From an uncultured virus (IMG/VR IMGVR_UViG_2882707223_000001) (Duplodnaviria > Heunggongvirae > Uroviricota > Caudoviricetes): 64,000 nt of DNA. The stretch lies in the IMG/VR virus record IMGVR_UViG_2882707223_000001; one strand, 5' to 3'. The notes beneath the pieces were generated by a model, which was not told the DNA's origin, did not search any database, and was given only the letters and a program-made list of their open reading frames with translations. Position numbers and translations under genes: made by a program. Every line of letters begins with the position of its first letter. Within the stretch, counting starts at the first letter, position 1. Positions 16,880-61,491 of the stretch are shown one piece after another.

Positions 16880-17097
16880 GAAAAGAGCATGCTTATAAAG
16901 TTTTTGTGGATATATGGAGACTGATATGTAAATACCGTTTTCAGAAACTGGATGATACTGAATGGGGCAGTTTTGTTTCCGATGGCGAGCGACTGTTACA
17001 GAGATACAAAGGAACGGATGTTGAATATTTGTACCGGCAGCTTCTCTTGGCAGTATCAGCAGTATATGAGCAGTTTGAAAAAAATAAAATGGATTGA
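16876..17097 (+). CDS. Phage hypothetical protein
   Basis: ATGA overlap with the rusA stop. Confidence 0.6.
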   Translation: MRKEHAYKVFVDIWRLICKYRFQKLDDTEWGSFVSDGERLLQRYKGTDVEYLYRQLLLAVSAVYEQFEKNKMD

Positions 17098-17111
17098 GGA
17101 AGAAAGCATAG

Positions 17112-17228
17112 ATGGGAAATTTTCAGGATACAGATAATGCTGTGCAAAAAATGGAATACGATGCGTTGAACGGGGAAATAAAGCGGACGATGAGAAGGTC
17201 TGCGAGGGACATGGTGCAGATAGGATAG
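17112..17228 (+). pseudogene. Truncated phage gene at the element junction
   Basis: GAGGA RBS; MGNFQ...RDMVQIG* stops exactly where base composition turns AT-rich. Confidence 0.5.
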
Positions 17229-17280
17229 CCAAAAAGTTCAAAAGTCAACTAAAAAAAGCCCTCTTTCGGGGGCTTCTTCC

Positions 17281-17676
17281 TTAGTATATGGTCATATCTT
17301 CATCTTCATTCTTTCTGTTGTATATTCTTATATGGAAATAGTTTATATTTTTCTCCTCTATGTTTTTATTATATTCTTTAAAAATAGGGGGTGTTTCGTA
17401 TCTTCTATCGTATTCTAAATAATCATATAATTTGTTTTTTAAATAATATACTGATGTATTACTTTTTATCAATATAGAAACTGAATAATATTCATATCCT
17501 TTTTTATCTCCTTTATACATATATCCTATTATTAAGTCATTCGTTATGTAATCAGTGTCTATACCTATGGTTTGTATAAAGCCATTTTGCATTAACCACT
17601 TGTGCCAGTCTATTAGAGATGTTCCTGTTTCTGGTAATCTATCAATAAGTTTTTGAAATCTTTTTGTTCTTGCCAT
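17281..17676 (-). CDS. Hypothetical protein of the AT-rich element
   Basis: 131 aa; AAGGGAG RBS; terminator hairpin at 17251-17275. Confidence 0.65.
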   Translation of the reverse strand: MARTKRFQKLIDRLPETGTSLIDWHKWLMQNGFIQTIGIDTDYITNDLIIGYMYKGDKKGYEYYSVSILIKSNTSVYYLKNKLYDYLEYDRRYETPPIFKEYNKNIEEKNINYFHIRIYNRKNEDEDMTIY

Positions 17677-17764
17677 TTTGGGCGGCTCTCCCTTCTCTAT
17701 AAATTATTTATAAAGTATACCATATTTAGCGCATATGTGCTAGCCCTCATTTAAAGGCGGTAAA

Positions 17765-18510
17765 CTCGGCGGCTGTCAAGTGCTAGGGTGGAGATTTTTT
17801 TGAATGTATTTCTCAAAAAAATACTACCCGATCTTGACTGCCTTACAACCTAAAAGATAATAGGAACAGAGGAAAAACCACAAAGGGGCTTTTCCTCTTA
17901 GGTGCTATGTTTTTCTTTCCAGTCTGTCAAGAAAGTATATTTTTTGTGGTAAATGATGATTTTTTAAAAAAAATGAAAAAATGCGTGATTTTTTTTGAAT
18001 TTCAAAAACCCTCTGGGGAAAGTGGGGAAACTGGGGAAAATGGGGAAAAAATATAATGATAAACCTTTAAAAATGGCTTAAATACGGCATTTCTCTTACG
18101 CGCACACACCGACAAGGGCTTGTGTCGGTGTGTGTGGGGTAAACTGGGGAAAGTGGGGAAAGTGGGGAAAAAAACACGCCTAAAAGTGGGGAAAATGGGC
18201 TTTTAAAGTGGGGAAAGTGTTTCACTTACCCCTCTTTCCACAGTTTAGCCCTCAATTCACATACGAACAAGCGGCAAAAAACGAAGTTTTTTGAAGGCTA
18301 ACCCGCCCGCTTGTGAGGTCGTAAGATTTTCGGTAGAAAATCGAGCGTAAAAAATACAAAAAGTTTTACCCCTTCAGGGGTAAAATGTTCACGCCCTTAT
18401 AAAAACAAGTATAAAATATTAAATTCACTTAGGTTTTTCCCCTGTTTACTTTTACTTACCCCTGTTTATTTTTCTGATCTGTTGACAAAAGTGGGGAAAG
18501 ATTATAAAAT
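17765..18510. repeat. Putative replication origin: hairpins and TGGGGAAA iterons
   Basis: Long hairpin 17769-17842 containing TACTACCCGA; about ten TGGGGAAA-type copies at 18014-18217 plus one at 18492; hairpins CACACACCGACA/TGTCGGTGTGTG and TTTTACCCC/GGGGTAAAA. Confidence 0.65.
18482..18510 (+). promoter_or_regulatory. Rep-operon promoter with an iteron in its spacer
   Basis: TTGACA-AAAGTGGGGAAAGATTA(17)-TAAAAT. Confidence 0.7.
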
Positions 18511-18634
18511 TATATTATAAAAAATAAATAAAAATCTAACAAGTATAGATTAAATGGAAAAATTAAAGGGCTGAAAAGTCTTTTATTTTCTGTTTAATCT
18601 ATTTTTTTGTTTTATAAGAAAGGATGAAAAAAAG

Positions 18635-18922
18635 ATGAGAGAAATTGCAAAAGATGAGTTTTGGGGAAAACTACCAAAACGCATAAATGAAAAGTCAATT
18701 AATAATGTATCTATGACTTTTTATAAAAATATCAATAATGAATATTTTATGATTTATAGAACCTATAATATGCGTCATAATTATATGATTTCATTGGAAT
18801 ATTTTGAAATATCTTATTATGAATACTTAGAAGAAAATGACGGTTATGATTATAGCTCAAATAAATATGATTCAAGCAATAGTGATTATAAAAAACGCTT
18901 TAACTATGGATATGATGATTAA
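18635..18922 (+). CDS. Hypothetical protein
   Basis: AAGGA RBS; first gene of the rep operon. Confidence 0.55.
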   Translation: MREIAKDEFWGKLPKRINEKSINNVSMTFYKNINNEYFMIYRTYNMRHNYMISLEYFEISYYEYLEENDGYDYSSNKYDSSNSDYKKRFNYGYDD

Positions 18923-18939
18923 AAAAGGAAGGTGAAAAA

Positions 18940-19215
18940 ATGAATAATAAAAAATACTTTAACTGTAAAGATGAAAACGGTTATATGAAAAAAGATCGAG
19001 AATGGATAGATAAGTTTAAGGCTCTTTATAATAATTATACGGCTGATGAACTTATAGCCTATGAAAAGGAAATATATTCAATGGGTAATGATATAAGGGG
19101 CTTAGAGCATAAGGTGCATTTTATAAGTATTATTCTATATAATAATTACGCTCTTTTTACTGCTATTGAAGAACTTATAAAAGAAAAAACAGAAAAAAAG
19201 GGCGGTGATGTCTAA
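18940..19215 (+). CDS. Hypothetical protein
   Basis: AAGGTG RBS; stop overlaps the inferred Rep start. Confidence 0.6.
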   Translation: MNNKKYFNCKDENGYMKKDREWIDKFKALYNNYTADELIAYEKEIYSMGNDIRGLEHKVHFISIILYNNYALFTAIEELIKEKTEKKGGDV

Positions 19216-20915
19216 TCAATGAAAAAGAAAAAACAGTTATAAAGGCGAAAATCTTTGAAATAGTGCAATATGAAAAGAATCCCAAAACTGGAGAAGATTT
19301 ACATTTTAATGAAGAAGTTATAAAAGATGGATTAGACCACAAAACTATTAAGCGTTTCGCTTATATCAAACATAATAAAGATCCTTATACCTTAGAAGAA
19401 GAAAAACAAGGGAAAGGAAAAGCGGGTGAGTTAAAAAATGACCACTGGCACGTTGTCCTTGAGTGCCCTGGCAAGGTTGATATAAAATATATTGCTAAGT
19501 GGTTTAATGTTCCTGAACAATATATAGAACTACCTAAAGGGCGTGGGGCTTTTCTTGATAAGGTGGCTTATTTAACACACGAAAGCGAAAAGGAACAAGC
19601 AAAAGGTAAAGCCCTCTATGATGATGATGAAGTTATAGCAAATTTTGACTGGCGAAAAGAACTCATTGAAAGAGAAGAAAATAAACTAAAATATGGCGGG
19701 GATTTATGTCCAAAAGATCGTATGCGTTATGATGTAAGATATTTGGGTAAAACTTTGAAAGAATGTCAAGACGAAGATAAAAAAATGTATATGGATAATG
19801 AAAAAGATCTTACATATTTAAGACTGCGTTATATAAATGAGTTAAAACCTCCAAAAGAAAGAATTAACATTTATATATCTGGTGAAGGTGGAAACGGTAA
19901 AGGCTTAATGAGTAAAGCAATAGCAAGAAGCCTATTCCCTGATATAGCAAATGAAGAAGATATATATTTTTGTGTAGGTGCTGAAGGTGCTGAATTTATC
20001 GGTTATGACGGACAACCTATTATTATTTGGTCTGATAAAAGGTCTTGGGAACTTTTAAAAGTTTTAAAAGGTAGGGGAAACGCTTTTGAAGTTTTAGATC
20101 CTCATCCTGATAGAAAAAACCAAAATGTTAAATATGCTTCAACTAATTTATGTAATAAAATAAATATAATAAATAGCGTTCAAGGTTGCTCTGATTTTTT
20201 AGATCGCCTTGCGGGGGAATATACAGATAAGCAAGGAAATAAACAAGAAGCGGAAGATAAAACACAGAGTTATAGAAGATTCCCTCTAACAATTACAATA
20301 AATGATAATTCATATGATTTAAAAGTAAATAAAGGTTATAAAGACAATACAAAAGATTTTTTAAATTATTATGAGTATTTGAATATTGATTGTAATTTAC
20401 AACAAATAAGGGTTATGTGTGGCGATAATGAAGCATTGGCAAAAGAACTTGAAAAGCAAGCAATAGAACCTATTTTAAAAGAATATAATGAAATTGTAAA
20501 CAGAGAAAAACCACAATATACTGAAGCTGAATTAAGAGAAATGTTTAAAAATGTAGGCAAGGTAAGAACACAAGAACCTGTAAAAGAAAGTATAAAAAAT
20601 AAATCTGAACTAGGTCATATTTATACTACTAATTGTGAGTATTATTATACATACCCTTGCGCTGATATTGAAAAGCCTGATTTTGATTATAAAAAATGTG
20701 TTGTTCCTTCATATTTGAATGAGTATGAATGTAAACAAAATTTAAAAGAATTTGAAAAAATACATAGAGAACTTGAAGCACAAAAAACAAAAGAAGAAAA
20801 AGAAAAAGAAGCACAAAAACAACAAGAAGCACAAGAACAAAAAGACGCTGATTTATTAGAAATGGCACAAGATGATTTTTACAATGAACCTGATAATAAT
20901 GATTTTTTTAATTAA
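19215..20915 (+). CDS. rep: Rolling-circle Rep: HUH endonuclease (Rep_2-like) fused to an SF3 helicase
   Basis: YIKHNKD, HWHVVL (HUH), YLTH (catalytic Tyr), GEGGNGKG Walker A, GYDGQPIIIWSD Walker B; frame open back to ATC 19215. Confidence 0.85.
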   Translation: MNEKEKTVIKAKIFEIVQYEKNPKTGEDLHFNEEVIKDGLDHKTIKRFAYIKHNKDPYTLEEEKQGKGKAGELKNDHWHVVLECPGKVDIKYIAKWFNVPEQYIELPKGRGAFLDKVAYLTHESEKEQAKGKALYDDDEVIANFDWRKELIEREENKLKYGGDLCPKDRMRYDVRYLGKTLKECQDEDKKMYMDNEKDLTYLRLRYINELKPPKERINIYISGEGGNGKGLMSKAIARSLFPDIANEEDIYFCVGAEGAEFIGYDGQPIIIWSDKRSWELLKVLKGRGNAFEVLDPHPDRKNQNVKYASTNLCNKINIINSVQGCSDFLDRLAGEYTDKQGNKQEAEDKTQSYRRFPLTITINDNSYDLKVNKGYKDNTKDFLNYYEYLNIDCNLQQIRVMCGDNEALAKELEKQAIEPILKEYNEIVNREKPQYTEAELREMFKNVGKVRTQEPVKESIKNKSELGHIYTTNCEYYYTYPCADIEKPDFDYKKCVVPSYLNEYECKQNLKEFEKIHRELEAQKTKEEKEKEAQKQQEAQEQKDADLLEMAQDDFYNEPDNNDFFN

Positions 20916-20928
20916 GGGGTGAAAACAA

Positions 20929-21096
20929 ATGAGAGAAATAGAAGAACAAGATTTTAAAAGTAGATACTTACTATTTTATGATAATTATAAAAAGGGCAAT
21001 TATATTTTAAGTGTTTATATTGATAAAGATTTAAACAAGTTTATAAATGTCTTAGACTTAGACTTGATGGAAAATGCATATTATATTGAAAAATAA
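20929..21096 (+). CDS. Small hypothetical protein (~55 aa)
   Basis: AAGGGGTG RBS; MREIEEQDFKSRY... Confidence 0.45.
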   Translation: MREIEEQDFKSRYLLFYDNYKKGNYILSVYIDKDLNKFINVLDLDLMENAYYIEK

Positions 21097-21121
21097 AAAT
21101 ACAAAAGAAAGGAAGAATAAA

Positions 21122-21469
21122 ATGAAAGAAAAAATGATAATTGATAGAATGGAAGATTTAAAAGAAATGATTAAAATTGAAAAGAGAAGAATAAAGGATC
21201 TTGAATATGATTTTGAATTTGGTTTTTCTTATGAACTTGAAGCAATTACTATGAATTTAATGGTGGCATATAGAATATTGGCGTATCTTCAAGGCGAATA
21301 TATAGAAGTTTTAGAACCATATAGACCTAAAAAAGAAATACCTTTAAAAACAAATCTTGATGATTTATTAAATGAGTTTGATTTAGAAGAACCATTAGAA
21401 GATCCTGAATTTATTAAGGAAAATATTGAAAATAAAAAGGAAGGAGAACAAAAGAAATGGATACAATAA
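21122..21469 (+). CDS. Hypothetical acidic coiled-coil protein
   Basis: AAGGA RBS before ATG 21122 within the listed ORF. Confidence 0.55.
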   Translation: MKEKMIIDRMEDLKEMIKIEKRRIKDLEYDFEFGFSYELEAITMNLMVAYRILAYLQGEYIEVLEPYRPKKEIPLKTNLDDLLNEFDLEEPLEDPEFIKENIENKKEGEQKKWIQ

Positions 21470-21618
21470 TAAAATTTTATATAAAAAAATATCTTTATAA
21501 AAAATTAGATGAAATACAAAAACAAAATAATGAAGATACTTCTGTAAATGATATTTTATATGACTGGGTTAATTCTTCATCTGTTGAATTTTAAAAAATA
21601 TGATGATATAATTATCTA

Positions 21619-21800
21619 AGAGAACGGGAAACTCTTAAACAATCCTAAAAATTGCTTAACAAAAAAATCCTACACTCTTAACAAAACACATCGGGTAAGT
21701 GTATAAAAAGCCTGTAGACTTAACTTATGATTATTTGATGGAATAAATCTAATAACTTTATTAAATAGCCTTTACTGCTAAATGCGGTAAGGGCTTTTTT
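21619..21800 (+). ncRNA. Candidate ~180-nt small RNA
   Basis: TTGAAT-17-TATAAT with extended TG (21584-21612); terminator AGCCTTTACTGC/GCGGTAAGGGCT plus T-run (21768-21800); no ORF. Confidence 0.55.
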
Positions 21801-21844
21801 GATCTGTTGACTTCTGATATGTAAAAATTATAAAATCAAATTAT

Positions 21845-22538
21845 AAGTTATTTATATATATCTTTATACAGATATTAAAAGTTTTGATGAACTAGCGTTC
21901 CTTAAGTATTCGCCTTTTGTATATTAGGTAATAAAAAATATATATTCTTTTTGGGAAGTTTAGAATTAAAAACAAACTTGTAAGTTTAGGAATTGGTATT
22001 TATTACATACTATTAAGAAGTAAAAAAGAGTATAAAAGTTTAGGTGATATGGCAATGTAAAAGTTGCTAATATTTTTAAAACTTAGTTATGTAACAACAA
22101 GAAGAAGTTGTTATTTTTTTGGTAGAAAATCACTCCTGTAATAAGGGGTCTTGGTTTACAAAATGCTTTGTCATTTTGGTTTAAAATCTCCTTTTATTAC
22201 AAAAAGAAATCTTATGATTTTTTATAATATTTAAGACAGTGAAGAAAACACTTTATCTAAAAAATTACAAAAAGGAAAAAAACCTTTTAAAAAAATACAT
22301 CTAACTTTTTAGAATTTTAGCGTATTACGCTTTAAGAGAAAAAAGCAAAAAATACGCTTGATCGGGTTGTGGTATCTGATAGCAAGATGAAACCGCCGAT
22401 CCTCTTTTGCTCTGGCTATTGTAAAAGCCTTTGCTAATTCTAATGCTTATATTGCTATATGTAACTAATAACCACGTAATTAATTATAAGATATAACATA
22501 AATAATCGTGTATTTGATGGCGAAAACGCCTTTTTTTC
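21845..22538 (+). ncRNA. Candidate large (~660-nt) structured non-coding RNA
   Basis: Promoter 21807-21836; 5'/3' closing helix 21848-21864 with 22488-22505; many nested long-range helices; terminator GGCG-AAAA-CGCC-T7; no ORF of 60 aa or more on either strand. Confidence 0.65.
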
Positions 22539-22648
22539 TTACTATTCTATGTCTTTTATCTACATTGAGGGGAAAAACTTGTTTTTCCCCGCTCAATGTA
22601 GATAAAAATGGGTTGAGTAAGAATTGAGAAGGTGATCTATTTCTTGAT

Positions 22649-22815
22649 TAATACGTATTAATTTTGCTAATACGTATTAAATTGCTAATACGTCTTTAAT
22701 ACGTATTAATTTGCTAATACGTATTAATTTTGCTAATACGTATTAATTTTGGGGAAATCCTAAAAAATAATACGTATTAATTTGCTAATACGTATTAAAT
22801 TGCTAATACGTATTA
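22649..22815. repeat. Array of 12-bp palindromes TAATACGTATTA
   Basis: 8 perfect copies and 1 imperfect copy, mostly at 18-19 bp period, in blocks of 6 and 3. Confidence 0.95.
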
Positions 22816-22915
22816 ATTTTATATATAGCCCGCCTACGGGCGGGGGCTGAAAAAAAGATTATGAGAATAAAAACAATAAGAATAAAAATTTTGATTTGAA
22901 AGGAGAACAAAAACA

Positions 22916-23410
22916 ATGAAAAAATACTTTTTAATAATACAACCTGATAACTTTAAAAAACCTAAAAAGGTGGAAAGAATAATTATATTTGATAAAGATA
23001 AAGCCTTAATTTTTGATTGTGAAATGACACGAATTTCTTATATGTATATAAAAAAATTAATGTCTGAAAACGCTCTATTTATTACATACAATGGTGAACT
23101 TTTAAAAAATATGTTATGGCAATTTTTTGGCTTTTGTGAATATAAAAACATTATTGATTTGATGGAAAACTTTGCCGTTGTATATGGAAAATATAAAGAC
23201 TGGGAAACAGAAGAAGGCTCTTTATATATCTGGCAAAAATTAGAAACTGCTTTAAATTATTATAAAGATAGGGGCTATAAAATACCTAATTGTAAAATTA
23301 ATATTTATGAACCTCTGGACGTTATAAGCGGAACAATTATATTATATGACTGTATGAAAGACTGGGAAGAAAAACAACTACAAAAAGAAATTAGAAAGGG
23401 GGTGATTTAA
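22916..23410 (+). CDS. Degenerate DEDDh/DnaQ exonuclease-like protein
   Basis: DLMENFAVVYGKYKDWE...YIWQKLETALNYY resembles the exonuclease at 36803-37330, but the acidic catalytic motifs are absent. Confidence 0.55.
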   Translation: MKKYFLIIQPDNFKKPKKVERIIIFDKDKALIFDCEMTRISYMYIKKLMSENALFITYNGELLKNMLWQFFGFCEYKNIIDLMENFAVVYGKYKDWETEEGSLYIWQKLETALNYYKDRGYKIPNCKINIYEPLDVISGTIILYDCMKDWEEKQLQKEIRKGVI

Positions 23411-24351
23411 TCCGTAATATAAATCAACAATTAAATTATGCTATAAGTAAATCTTTAAAAATTGGTGAAAGTAAACACTCTGCTAAAAAGAACGGCACTT
23501 ATAGAGAAGGTAATATTTATAGCAATAATACATTACAATCTTATAAAGATACCGCTAAAAATTTAAGTAATTGGCTGAAAGAAAAACATCCTGAAGTAAA
23601 AAATGTTGTAGATATAAAACAAGAACATATTCAAGAGTGGATCAATGACAGGGGTAAAAACTGGTCGCTTAGAACGCTTGAAAATCATATGACTAAAATA
23701 AAATATCTTGAAGAACAATCAAAAAAAGTCTTTGGGCGTGATAATGTAAATTTCTATAATAAAGATTATGAAAAACCTAAAACAAAAGAATCAACAAGGG
23801 ATAAAGCCTTTACTCCTGATGATTTAAACAGATTAAGGGAAACAATGAAAAATAGCCGCTCTTTTGCAAAAGAAGCAATAGAAATTACAAGCCGCTGTGG
23901 ATTGCGTATTGATGAAGTAGCACATTTAAAAAGAGAAGATATAAACATATCTGAAAAAACTATATATGTTGATAGAGAAGGGGCAAAAAACGGTAAAGCC
24001 CGTGTTGTTCCTGTTCGTGATAAAGATATAAATTATTTTAAAGAATTATTAGAAAAATATCCTGAAAGGGGCTATTTTACAAAAACTGACGCTAAAAGCA
24101 TAAGTAAAAGCATACGCCGCTATATGGATAAGACACAAGACAGGGAAGGCGTGTTATTGTCTAAAAAATATGAAAAAACAACCGATCACGCTATAAGAAA
24201 ATTATACGCCACGGAAAGAATGAAGGAACTTAGGGGCAATGAACCTTTAAGCAATAACAAGGAAGAAATGAAAAACTGGAATATAGTTTCTAAGGAATTA
24301 GGACACGGTGAAGGTAGAAAAAATTTATATAATACATATTGTAAGGGATAA
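23410..24351 (+). CDS. Tyrosine recombinase/integrase
   Basis: CGLRIDE (R), AKNGK (K), HAIRK (HxxR), LGH, terminal TY; frame open upstream to ATC 23410, encoding a SAM-like N-domain. Confidence 0.88.
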   Translation: MRNINQQLNYAISKSLKIGESKHSAKKNGTYREGNIYSNNTLQSYKDTAKNLSNWLKEKHPEVKNVVDIKQEHIQEWINDRGKNWSLRTLENHMTKIKYLEEQSKKVFGRDNVNFYNKDYEKPKTKESTRDKAFTPDDLNRLRETMKNSRSFAKEAIEITSRCGLRIDEVAHLKREDINISEKTIYVDREGAKNGKARVVPVRDKDINYFKELLEKYPERGYFTKTDAKSISKSIRRYMDKTQDREGVLLSKKYEKTTDHAIRKLYATERMKELRGNEPLSNNKEEMKNWNIVSKELGHGEGRKNLYNTYCKG

Positions 24352-24415
24352 TATAAACCAACTGGAAGATGAAGCAAGCCCTGTCTTTGGGCTTGGTTCA
24401 TCTGTAAGGCGGTAG

Positions 24416-24439
24416 CAAGCCGAAAGGCTTGTTTTTTTT
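24416..24439 (+). terminator. Intrinsic terminator after the recombinase
   Basis: CAAGCC-GAAA-GGCTTG-T8. Confidence 0.85.
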
Positions 24440-24608
24440 GACTTTTTTATAATTGCTTATTATTTTATACATATGGCGTATGTAATCTATACATAACTTA
24501 TGGTGTATAGAATATGTATAAAACGCCTTAAATGCGCTGTAATTGATTTTAAAATCCTTTAATGACTGTTTACCCTCTGGAAGTATTTAAAAATGATTCT
24601 GGGGCATT

Positions 24609-24836
24609 TTACGGCTTTTGTGGCGGCTCTGGTGGCGTGTCTGGTAAGAAAATAACAACACTCTCGGCTTGGCACTGTAAAATTTGGCATAACTTTTCTA
24701 ATGTGTGCATTGTAATGCTCTTATTGCGTTTTAAGTTGGTTATGGTGTAAGGGCTGAAATTGTGCTTGTATATAAGCGTATATGTTGTTATCCCTTGCTT
24801 TTTCATTGTTTTCCACAATGGCTCATAAGAAATCAC
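24609..24836 (-). CDS. XRE/Cro-C1 HTH regulator
   Basis: MISYEPLWK...TLEKLCQILQC is a typical short HTH; divergent from the early operon. Confidence 0.85.
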   Translation of the reverse strand: MISYEPLWKTMKKQGITTYTLIYKHNFSPYTITNLKRNKSITMHTLEKLCQILQCQAESVVIFLPDTPPEPPQKP

Positions 24837-24897
24837 AAGATCGCCCCCTTCCTACTGGTTTTTTGAATATTTTTATTATCTTATAGCAAAGTTTTAA

Positions 24898-60094: not shown

Positions 60095-60209
60095 CGGTTG
60101 CTTATTCGTGGCGGTAATTATGGTAATGGCGGTAACGCAGGAGAGGCTCACGGCGTTTTCAGCAACCCGCGTTCTTTCTCCAATGTGTCTGTGGGGTTGT
60201 TTTCCGCTT
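60095..60209 (+). repeat. DGR template repeat (TR)
   Basis: AAT/AAC-containing copy of VR located between avd and RT. Confidence 0.93.
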
Positions 60210-60378
60210 TTCTCATATAGTCAGATTGTGCCGCAACACGCGGGCGGCGCAGCGTACAGAGAGAAGAAAAGGGGCATATTTCCCTGCCTGCAGGTGCGGG
60301 CAAAACAAAAATTTCCATGAATACGGTTAGTAGCGAAAGCAAAGGGCGTAACGCATGGAGTATTAAGGCAATAAAAAT

Positions 60379-61491
60379 ATGAAAAAATTTAATGTGACCT
60401 ATGAACAGATTACAAGCTATACAAATATTTATGCAGCTTATTTAGACGCGCGAAAAGGAAAAAGTGAACGCAATGAAATTATGCGCTTTTCCGTAGAACT
60501 TGACAGCCATTTAAACAGCTTATACAAGGAACTGGAGGAAAGGCGTTATAAAGTAAGCGGGTACAGACTTATTTATATTTATGTGCCAAAGAAACGGCTT
60601 ATTATGGCGTTGCAGTTTCGGGATCGCGTTCTGCAATGGGCTATTTATAGGGTACTCAATCCACTTTATGAGAAAACCTACATAAAAGACAGTTATGCTT
60701 GTATCAAGGACAGAGGCAGAGAAAAGGCGGCGGCAAGGCTGCAATATTGGTTACGGCAGGTAGGCAGAAAGCCGGTACAATACTATTACTTGAAACTTGA
60801 CATATCGAAATTCTTTTACCGAGTGGATCACGAAATACTGTTAGAGATTTTGAAACGCCGGATCAAGGATCCGAAACTAATAAACCTATTCAGTATAATT
60901 ATAAATTCGGAGAAAAGAGCCTTCGGGTTGCCGTTGGGCGTGGATCCTTGCGAGGTAGATCCGCGCGAAATGCTATTTGATAAGGGTATGCCGATCGGCA
61001 ATCTGACAAGTCAGATGTTTGCAAATATCTATATGAATGAATTGGATCAGTATATAAAGCATGAATTACGCCTAAAGTATTTGATCCGGTATGCAGATGA
61101 TACGGTTATTTTGGTGGAGAGCAAAGAAAAGGCACATTGGGCATTGGGGAAAATAGAAACTTTCCTGCTTGAAAAATTGAAGCTAAATCTTAACAGCAAA
61201 ACCGCCATAAGACCGGTAAGCTGCAATGTTGATTTTGTGGGATATGTGATAAACAAAGACGAAATAAGGCTAAGATCCGCGACAGTTAAAAGAATGAGAT
61301 CCCGCATAAAGTATATTGTAAAAGCATACGAGCGCGGCGAAATGACTTTAAAGGAAGTCAACGCAACCATGCAAAGTTATTTTGGTTTGCTAAAGCATTG
61401 CACAAACGTGGGATTGAAAGAAAACATTATAAACAGTTTTGCGCTACATTGCACCGATGCGGCGCGGGCTAAAGCACTGGAAAGCCGATAG
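60379..61491 (+). CDS. DGR reverse transcriptase
   Basis: FRDRVLQ, LKLDISKFF, GMPIGNLTSQMFAN, RYADD, VDFVGY. Confidence 0.95.
   Translation: MKKFNVTYEQITSYTNIYAAYLDARKGKSERNEIMRFSVELDSHLNSLYKELEERRYKVSGYRLIYIYVPKKRLIMALQFRDRVLQWAIYRVLNPLYEKTYIKDSYACIKDRGREKAAARLQYWLRQVGRKPVQYYYLKLDISKFFYRVDHEILLEILKRRIKDPKLINLFSIIINSEKRAFGLPLGVDPCEVDPREMLFDKGMPIGNLTSQMFANIYMNELDQYIKHELRLKYLIRYADDTVILVESKEKAHWALGKIETFLLEKLKLNLNSKTAIRPVSCNVDFVGYVINKDEIRLRSATVKRMRSRIKYIVKAYERGEMTLKEVNATMQSYFGLLKHCTNVGLKENIINSFALHCTDAARAKALESR

Follow-up and report, generated by a model that had tools for sequence, protein, structure and literature searches.

A gene-free, two-part unit with a conserved promoter and weak terminators upstream of the recombinase genes of a Rep-encoding integrative element

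What occupies a stretch of a mobile element that holds no gene? This question is raised by positions 21807-22538 of a 64,000-nucleotide (nt) stretch of DNA from an uncultured virus of the Caudoviricetes (IMG/VR record IMGVR_UViG_2882707223_000001), which as a whole we call the window. The positions lie inside an integrative element of low GC content in a mouse-gut bacterium, downstream of a Rep gene and upstream of the gene of a tyrosine-recombinase-like protein. An earlier reading of the letters, hereafter the original prediction, had placed here a single, ornate non-coding RNA of about 660 nt. The region is a gene-free, non-coding part of the mobile element. It is probably transcribed, and it looks like two shorter non-coding parts, a 5' unit 1 and a 3' unit 2, with only small local hairpins. 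In our tentative reading the transcript would be a leader that starts at a promoter, P2, and whose two weak terminators, T1 and T2, would gate transcription of the recombinase module. The coordinates of all features are collected in Table 1.

The non-coding status follows from the reading frames themselves. No open reading frame (ORF) of 30 amino acids (aa) or more was found across 21595-22479. Of the ORFs of at least 20 aa, ten overlap 21800-22560; eight of these, contained within the unit, measure 21-29 aa and are unconvincing. Homologues of the unit, described below and labelled L with a number, are distinguished by indels of 1-2 nt in homopolymer runs, which rules out that a reading frame is conserved. 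With no ORF of this size and with frames broken among the homologues, the ORF-free character claimed in the original prediction was borne out. Two small-protein candidates were rejected: a 14-codon ORF on the minus strand (22135-22179) is shortened in L037, and a hydrophobic 21-codon ORF (22431-22496) is shortened in L107. The GC content of the unit is about 25%.

The unit is preceded by P2. A promoter scan alone performs at chance level on this DNA, with 18 sites found and 17.7 expected. Both hexamers of P2 are invariant in L092, L056, L066, L037 and L107, while the spacer between them differs in L037 and L107. The same TGATCTGTTGAC-17/18-TATAAAAT arrangement stands at 18482-18510 before the Rep operon, where it reaches 11 of 12 matches, and two more copies are found in the distal part of the element on the same contig, which makes four paralogous copies in all. 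Invariant hexamers, a varying spacer and paralogous copies agree with a promoter of the sigma-70 type. Conservation, rather than the scan score, is what backs this predicted promoter, which the original prediction had named with the same hexamers. The distal part of the element holds terminator-plus-promoter cassettes at 1500-1750 of L002 and at 1480-1800 of L003 (near 103.5 kb and 100.8 kb of contig G000:C4). In L002 an ORF-free stretch of about 150 nt separates the promoter copy (approximately 1540-1748) from a terminator, and this may be a further small non-coding unit. The 9-bp GGGGAAANT repeat forms two clusters, in 18006-18221 and 18482-18510. The spacer of the Rep-operon promoter (18482) contains a GGGGAAA repeat, and the presence of a 9-bp copy within this spacer suggests an operator for a regulator encoded by the element.

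Three hairpins with a following run of T or U punctuate the locus. The terminator upstream of P2, T0, is strong (-19.5 kcal/mol, z-score -5.7, none of 200 shuffled sequences as good). It is predicted to close the Rep operon upstream and to insulate the unit from it. The two terminators of the unit itself also consist of a hairpin and a U-run, as expected for intrinsic terminators, and both are weak. T1, at the end of unit 1, is found as an AACAAC/GUUGUU hairpin with its U-run in all nine unit-1 sequences, one stem pair being flipped in the L065 type. T2, at the end of unit 2, corresponds to the 3' terminator of the original prediction: its hairpin with seven U exists but is weak, since 14 of 200 shuffles fold equally well, and its stem is weaker still in L037 (GGCU GAAA CGCC). 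With energies of -7.0 kcal/mol for T1 and only -5.8 kcal/mol for T2, compared with that of T0, partial readthrough fits.

Homologues were gathered through the neighbouring Rep protein, by way of which 64 loci were collected. Four of these contain the unit in full, at 93-95% identity in L092, L056 and L066 and at 86% in L037, and four more (L057, L058, L064, L065) contain a piece of about 90 nt. A metagenome scan with ORF164, the gene that follows the unit, gave one further copy at 92% (L107). In L092, L056, L066 and L107 the Rep gene shares about 70% DNA identity with that of the window compared with 91-95% from 21763 onward, so that a mosaic junction lies exactly at the upstream terminator. 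Copies with such a Rep gene and flanks of 91-95% point either to an exchange of modules or to a Rep gene that diverges fast inside a single family of elements. Upstream of T0 there is a variable insertion site. It holds a 164-nt insert in the window (21599-21762) and a different insert of about 480 nt in L107 (2364-2846), which begins with ATG and may encode a small protein. In the window the insert region has a site resembling a promoter (21584-21612), and 43 nt of it match sequence that follows unit 1 in L064 and L065.

Beyond these loci the searches returned little. With blastn no match to 21600-22560 was found in phage and plasmid collections. Among 61 related genomes there were only two matches to the unit, of 34-40 nt, and 81 of 401 family genomes matched at E ≤ 0.01, where all matches outside the window's own genome were at most 61 nt long, low-scoring and scattered, with none spanning the unit. 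Locus searches of viral contigs with the single proteins Rep and ORF164 found nothing, and no alignment to ORF164 was obtained there; in the same contigs a 22-mer of unit 2 had no match and the 18-mer of unit 1 (see below) had seven, without extended similarity. The genomes of five related loci gave no further copies except of the promoter, and an nhmmer search of the window's own genome with the complete unit likewise recovered promoter copies only. With one mismatch allowed, two matches to the 18-mer turned up in the genus, of which 13 genomes were searched, that of the window included; both matches are coding and non-homologous and were discarded. A description of this unit was not found in the literature on ROOL, GOLLD and OLE in prophages or Lachnospiraceae, and nothing relevant to it was found in that on the non-coding RNA of pCRESS and integrated plasmids. 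Judged by these searches, the unit is new as a sequence family, and it is of an ordinary kind; accounts of similar elements may be contained in Supplementary Note 1 and Table 1 of PMC6668415.

The distribution of the homologues divides the region into its two parts. Unit 1 aligns from promoter to terminator in nine sequences, which include a second element type (L057, L058, L064, L065). It contains an invariant 18-mer at 21978-21995 and three AAGTTTAG direct repeats (21956, 21982, 22036). The hairpin next to the 18-mer, Hc, pairs in all nine sequences with three different stems (GGUAU/AUACY, GAUAU/AUAUC and GAUGU/ACAUC), and its loop varies among UUAUUAC, AUAAAAAC and UAAAC. In addition, a 4-bp helix (21944-47/21963-66) has three covarying pairs. 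The RNAalifold consensus of unit 1 is otherwise nearly empty, with 9 pairs and -3.9 kcal/mol. In the L065 type the unit-1 terminator lies 150 nt before the gene of a 316-aa tyrosine recombinase, and no promoter-like site was found between the two.

Unit 2 is confined to the near-identical copies. Its RNA fold has a z-score of -3.45, which none of 100 shuffles equalled; with DNA parameters the values are -2.75 on the plus and -3.21 on the minus strand. Two local hairpins each show a compensatory change, from U-A to C-G at 22137/22144 in L092 and from G-C to A-U at 22415/22428 in L107, and the loop positions vary freely. In the hairpin 22132-22149, pairs that are G-U on the plus strand would be A-C mismatches on the minus strand, and one-sided changes that keep a pair number 18-19 on the plus strand versus 5-8 on the minus strand. 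These local G-U pairs and the excess of pair-keeping changes lean towards the plus strand, a tendency that is not statistically firm. Any structure drawn for unit 2 is provisional, as the copies share 86% identity or more.

Could the region nevertheless form the single large structure of the original prediction? The window sequence allows every helix listed there to pair, and the duplex energies range from -2.9 to -11.8 kcal/mol. Folding was assessed by z-scores against shuffled sequence, for the whole unit with 60 shuffles per strand. This gave -2.6 on the plus strand and -4.4 on the minus strand, and on neither strand did a shuffle do as well; a run with 20 shuffles returned -2.8 and -6.3. 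A folding excess does exist, but it is modest and present on both strands, and for the 5' 280 nt no excess over chance was seen. The energies thus do not bear out the argument that G-U pairs point to a plus-strand RNA. Within 21840-22500, windows of 120 nt ranged from z +1.2 to -2.7, and the strong windowed signals were those of the upstream terminator and of the palindrome and repeats downstream of 22550.

Covariation was tested with five distinct sequences of 86-100% identity, from which L066 was omitted as it is identical to L056 here. Not one of the 108 pairs in the listed helices showed a compensatory change, and 16 contained unpaired cells. The covariation score was 0.048 compared with 0.050 for shuffles, 491 of 500 of which scored at least as high. 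The long-range helices lose pairing: the helix that joins the ends is broken at 6 of 15 pairs and helix 22083-97/22452-68 at 4 of 10, all changes being one-sided. Four others (22309-16/22436-43, 22319-26/22351-58, 22360-65/22396-401 and 22159-65/22172-78) stay intact in all five sequences, yet hardly vary. The covariation term of RNAalifold was +1. When the minimum free energy (MFE) fold of the window was taken as the structure, 47 variable pairs were broken versus 19 with one-sided and 2 with compensatory changes, and stems were not poorer in variable positions (78 of 396 paired versus 65 of 302 unpaired positions, Fisher p 0.57). A blind scan for compensatory columns returned 497 column pairs, and for 29 of these the stack was 3 or more; they constitute no evidence, because the differences of L037 and L107 are linked by descent. 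The power of the covariation test is low, as only five distinct full-length homologues were found and all are at least 86% identical.

The assignment to known families fared no better. Across 21300-23000 no Rfam match to ROOL, GOLLD, OLE or group I/II introns was obtained even at E ≤ 10. A permissive search of this interval yielded 18 sub-threshold matches, none to these families, and the sole one within 21842-22500 was to ceN59 on the minus strand (E 7.7). ROOL and GOLLD are associated with mobile or phage DNA, and the unit shares with them its place on mobile DNA and, with OLE as well, a similar length class (approximately 600-800 nt) and a Firmicutes setting. It differs from the three in having no Rfam match, no conserved long-range helices, a very narrow distribution and a 5' part that folds at chance level. 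The existing variation argues against a long-range nested fold, which is not supported. An ornate RNA of about 660 nt, be it a new class or a relative of these families, appears very improbable to us: the listed helices can be drawn, the whole-unit MFE beats its shuffles and unit 2 has its own folding excess, but the closing helices are broken, the variable pairs of the MFE fold are mostly lost, and the unit divides into two modules of differing distribution. DNA with a GC content of about 25% lets the eye draw numerous nested helices; here close homologues sufficed to reveal that the long-range helices are not preserved. The unit is not a new giant RNA of the ROOL/GOLLD kind.

What would a transcript with two weak terminators do? 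P2 would fire rightwards into a gene-free transcript, which T1 and T2 would punctuate to give an RNA of about 280 nt (unit 1) and, by readthrough, one of about 700 nt. The transcript would act mainly in cis as a leader, with the terminators gating the flow from P2 to ORF164 and to the 220-aa tyrosine recombinase, and its conserved regulatory part would be unit 1, which combines invariant single-stranded motifs with small hairpins. Transcription in this form, terminators that are leaky and regulated, and a dependence of the downstream genes on P2 are what we infer. Leader RNAs with intrinsic terminators occur as attenuators and as antitermination leaders of phages and conjugative elements. The unit resembles them in its promoter, its conserved non-coding leader, its weak terminators and its position before genes for which no promoter of their own was found: between 22540 and 22916 a scan for plus-strand promoters with more than 9 of 12 matches found none, and in the L065 type the recombinase gene begins shortly past the terminator. 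It differs from such leaders in that no competing antiterminator structure or effector was identified in it and in that it would be unusually long, at about 1.07 kb to ORF164, and would cross a DNA palindrome and a repeat array.

Expression was assessed from assembled contigs of public runs, in which strand and ends are unreadable. In the metatranscriptomes X18 and X19, and in X16, a doubtful RNA run, Rep and the unit are covered alike, as are the flanking genes, so that these runs are not informative on expression of the unit in particular. A small transcriptome run, X20, has contigs within 17000-22640 only at 22153-22295 and 22314-22466, which is a weak hint that the unit is expressed.

Several observations weigh against a leader. 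The fold energy favours neither strand, for the whole unit or for unit 2, and unit 1 has an RNA fold at chance level (z-score -0.23, 72 of 200 shuffles as good). Because Rep is covered at similar depth, the X18 and X19 signals are not specific to the unit and could reflect DNA. No alternative antiterminator pairing was found. T1 and ORF164 are separated by about 800 nt with the palindrome and the repeat array, which are DNA-level features, and this gap could hold a promoter that a simple scan missed. The recombinase of the L065 type falls below the Pfam cut-off (23.9 versus 27.1 bits) and is only 25% identical to the 220-aa protein of the window. Taking both sides together, we prefer a P2-driven leader whose two weak terminators gate the recombinase module, and we hold this view tentatively, at a little under an even chance. 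A more far-reaching version is possible, though rather doubtful: unit 1 (about 220-280 nt) may be a new class of regulatory RNA of Rep-encoding integrative elements which, retained in two families of elements with its own promoter and terminator and immediately before recombinase genes, would sense a signal of the element or host and switch the recombinase; in the window's type it would be extended by unit 2 as a new hairpin-rich RNA domain of about 415 nt.

The same promoter and terminators, bracketing a sequence free of ORFs, would also be expected if the unit encoded stand-alone, trans-acting small RNAs (sRNAs), namely unit 1 with about 280 nt and perhaps a second RNA in unit 2, which would act on a protein or on a target RNA beyond the element and which the terminators would simply end. 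The invariant unpaired motifs of unit 1, i.e. the 18-mer and the three repeats, would suit such a role, as would the ORF-free cassette behind the L002 promoter copy and the X20 contigs, which fall only inside unit 2. A search of the genome for targets stayed at chance level, however, with best matches of 15-19 nt at E 0.56-2.2. When the unit-1 core was paired with each of the element's 10 translation-start regions, z-scores ran from -0.6 to +1.3, and the terminators are weak. We consider sRNAs unlikely. Should the leader or the sRNA reading be true, the unit would offer a handle on the control of recombination or replication in the Rep-encoding integrative elements of gut Lachnospiraceae; small elements of this type are known from genome surveys and have barely been studied. 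Improbable in our estimate is that the region is for the most part a non-functional, AT-rich spacer between mosaic modules, in which promoter and terminators have no function of their own. The low GC content, the mosaic junction with its variable insertions and the even spread of substitutions over predicted stems and loops would fit a spacer. Against it, 22200-22500 is 91-95% identical to L037, which at least matches the neighbouring coding DNA (77-95%), and unit 1 is retained, long invariant stretches included, in two types of element although the residues shared by their Reps amount to only about 50%.

A role as DNA rather than RNA has to be weighed as well. The region could provide origin elements for the HUH Rep, with transcription being incidental or serving only to activate the origin; it might be a double-strand origin (Hc with the AAGTTTAG repeats) and/or a single-strand origin in the displaced plus strand that primes the lagging strand. 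The Rep carries HUH, YLxH and Walker A motifs; excerpts of one source place such Reps of the YLxH supergroup mostly in integrated elements (PMC6668415), and excerpts of another describe a cruciform stem-loop origin model for them (PMC8780604). Hc is a covarying 5-bp hairpin with direct repeats alongside, all its loops end in AC, and its shortness, its place on the Rep strand and the neighbouring repeats recall the stem-loop origins of HUH Reps in the pMV158 family and in CRESS-DNA viruses. The CRESS nonanucleotide ends in TATTAC, which the TTATTAC loop of the window resembles. Unlike in those origins, the loop is not conserved among close relatives: three loops occur, independently of the Rep type, such that L107, L056 and L092 keep the loop of the window despite about 70% Rep DNA identity, while L037, whose Rep is 89% identical, has another. 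Moreover, the 18-mer stands beside only 8 of the 64 Rep-relative loci and is absent beside the other 56, most of the Rep relatives being without a large gap after Rep.

For a single-strand origin speaks the hexamer TAGCGT, the CS-6 motif of ssoA origins according to PMC4598088, which occurs twice on the plus strand (21893, 22318), the displaced strand in this model, and not on the minus strand (P(≥2) = 0.009, 5000 shuffles). PMC5703833 describes ssoA as a folded DNA some 160 nt long whose activity depends on orientation, and the folding excess of the unit is present on both strands and persists with DNA parameters. Like ssoA and ssoU, the unit is non-coding, strand-specific and hairpin-rich, and it lies on an HUH-Rep replicon with its two hexamers on the Rep strand. 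By its predicted fold it appears to differ from them in lacking a single hairpin of about 160 nt that bears CS-6 in its loop. The first hexamer is not conserved, being TAGTGT in the L065 type and deleted in L037, and the second (22318-22323) lies in a predicted stem of the MFE fold and not in a terminal loop. A promoter and a terminator kept as a block around unit 1 would be unexpected for a bare origin. We assign the DNA role a low probability, like that of the sRNAs, and count it as a serious competitor of the leader.

Table 1. Features of the locus in window coordinates.
Feature	Position	Strand	Description
Low-GC integrative element, left part	17240-24885	+	GC 22-34% vs 40-50% in flanks
Rep gene	19263-20915	+	HUH endonuclease and superfamily 3 (SF3) helicase; Rep_OBD, RNA_helicase
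T0, strong intrinsic terminator	21767-21795	+	12-bp stem, then T-run
P2, promoter	21807-21836	+	TTGACT-18-TAAAAT; 10/12 matches; inferred transcription start near 21843
Unit 1	21843-22120	+	~280-nt conserved non-coding unit; invariant 18-mer, AAGTTTAG repeats, small hairpins
Hc, hairpin	21995-22011	+	GGTAT / TTATTAC / ATACT; immediately 3' of invariant 18-mer
T1, internal weak terminator	22091-22120	+	stem GUAACAAC / GUUGUUAU, then U-run; -7.0 kcal/mol
Unit 2	22123-22537	+	~415-nt non-coding part; local hairpins; near-identical copies only
Local hairpins of unit 2	22132-22149, 22159-22178, 22360-22401, 22414-22429	+	
T2, weak terminator	22519-22537	+	4-bp GGCG/CGCC stem, AAAA loop, then U7
Near-perfect long palindrome	22553-22608		just after T2; 25-bp stem, -29.3 kcal/mol, z -7.9
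Repeat array	22650-22820		palindromic core AATACGTATT; about nine repeats, spaced ~18-29 bp
ORF164	22916-23410	+	91-95% conserved; no Pfam or PHROG match
220-aa tyrosine-recombinase-like protein	23689-24351	+	Phage_integrase, E 7e-13

The surroundings of the unit are those of an integrative element with an HUH-helicase Rep, in agreement with the 'unusual replicon' of the original prediction. Homology to L036, L037, L038, L056, L092 and L107 ends at about 17240 and about 24885. In other genomes the element continues rightwards. In the genome of the window this continuation lies at G000:C4:96219 onward, which means that a block of about 41 kb with higher GC content interrupts the element here; L092, L056 and L037 run straight past the junction TTATCTTATA. 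The distal part of the element ends with a large serine recombinase of 506 aa. A protein with a Cro/C1-type HTH is also among those encoded by the element. As in Reps of the YLxH supergroup that combine HUH and SF3 domains, the protein has an HUH motif with invariant H61 and H63 (HWH), a YLTH motif III with invariant Y103, T105 and H106 and a nearly invariant L104, and a Walker A motif (G207..G212 K213).

Downstream of T2 the palindrome 22553-22608 is a DNA-level feature outside the claimed RNA, and weak, sub-threshold matches to miRNA models fall on it on both strands. A GC-rich hairpin (22829-22850) follows the AATACGTATT array before ORF164. Together, palindrome, array and hairpin (22553-22850) look like a protein-binding array, such as an origin, a partition site or an operator. 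For ORF164 a protein-atlas search gave an RNase H-like lead (YprB-type), whose score of 0.88 lies below the trusted level, and FDCE and YNGE motifs can be discerned by eye.

The interrupting block (24886-64000 onward) carries phage-type replication and DNA-methylase genes. It also holds the only Rfam match at gathering level within the 64 kb, an RT-14 motif at 60208-60358 (72.4 bits versus a gathering threshold of 48.1). The motif adjoins a downstream reverse transcriptase of 370 aa (RVT_1, E 1e-23) in this phage-like block, the pair spanning 60208-61491, and RT-14 with a reverse transcriptase is a known pairing of an RNA with its enzyme.

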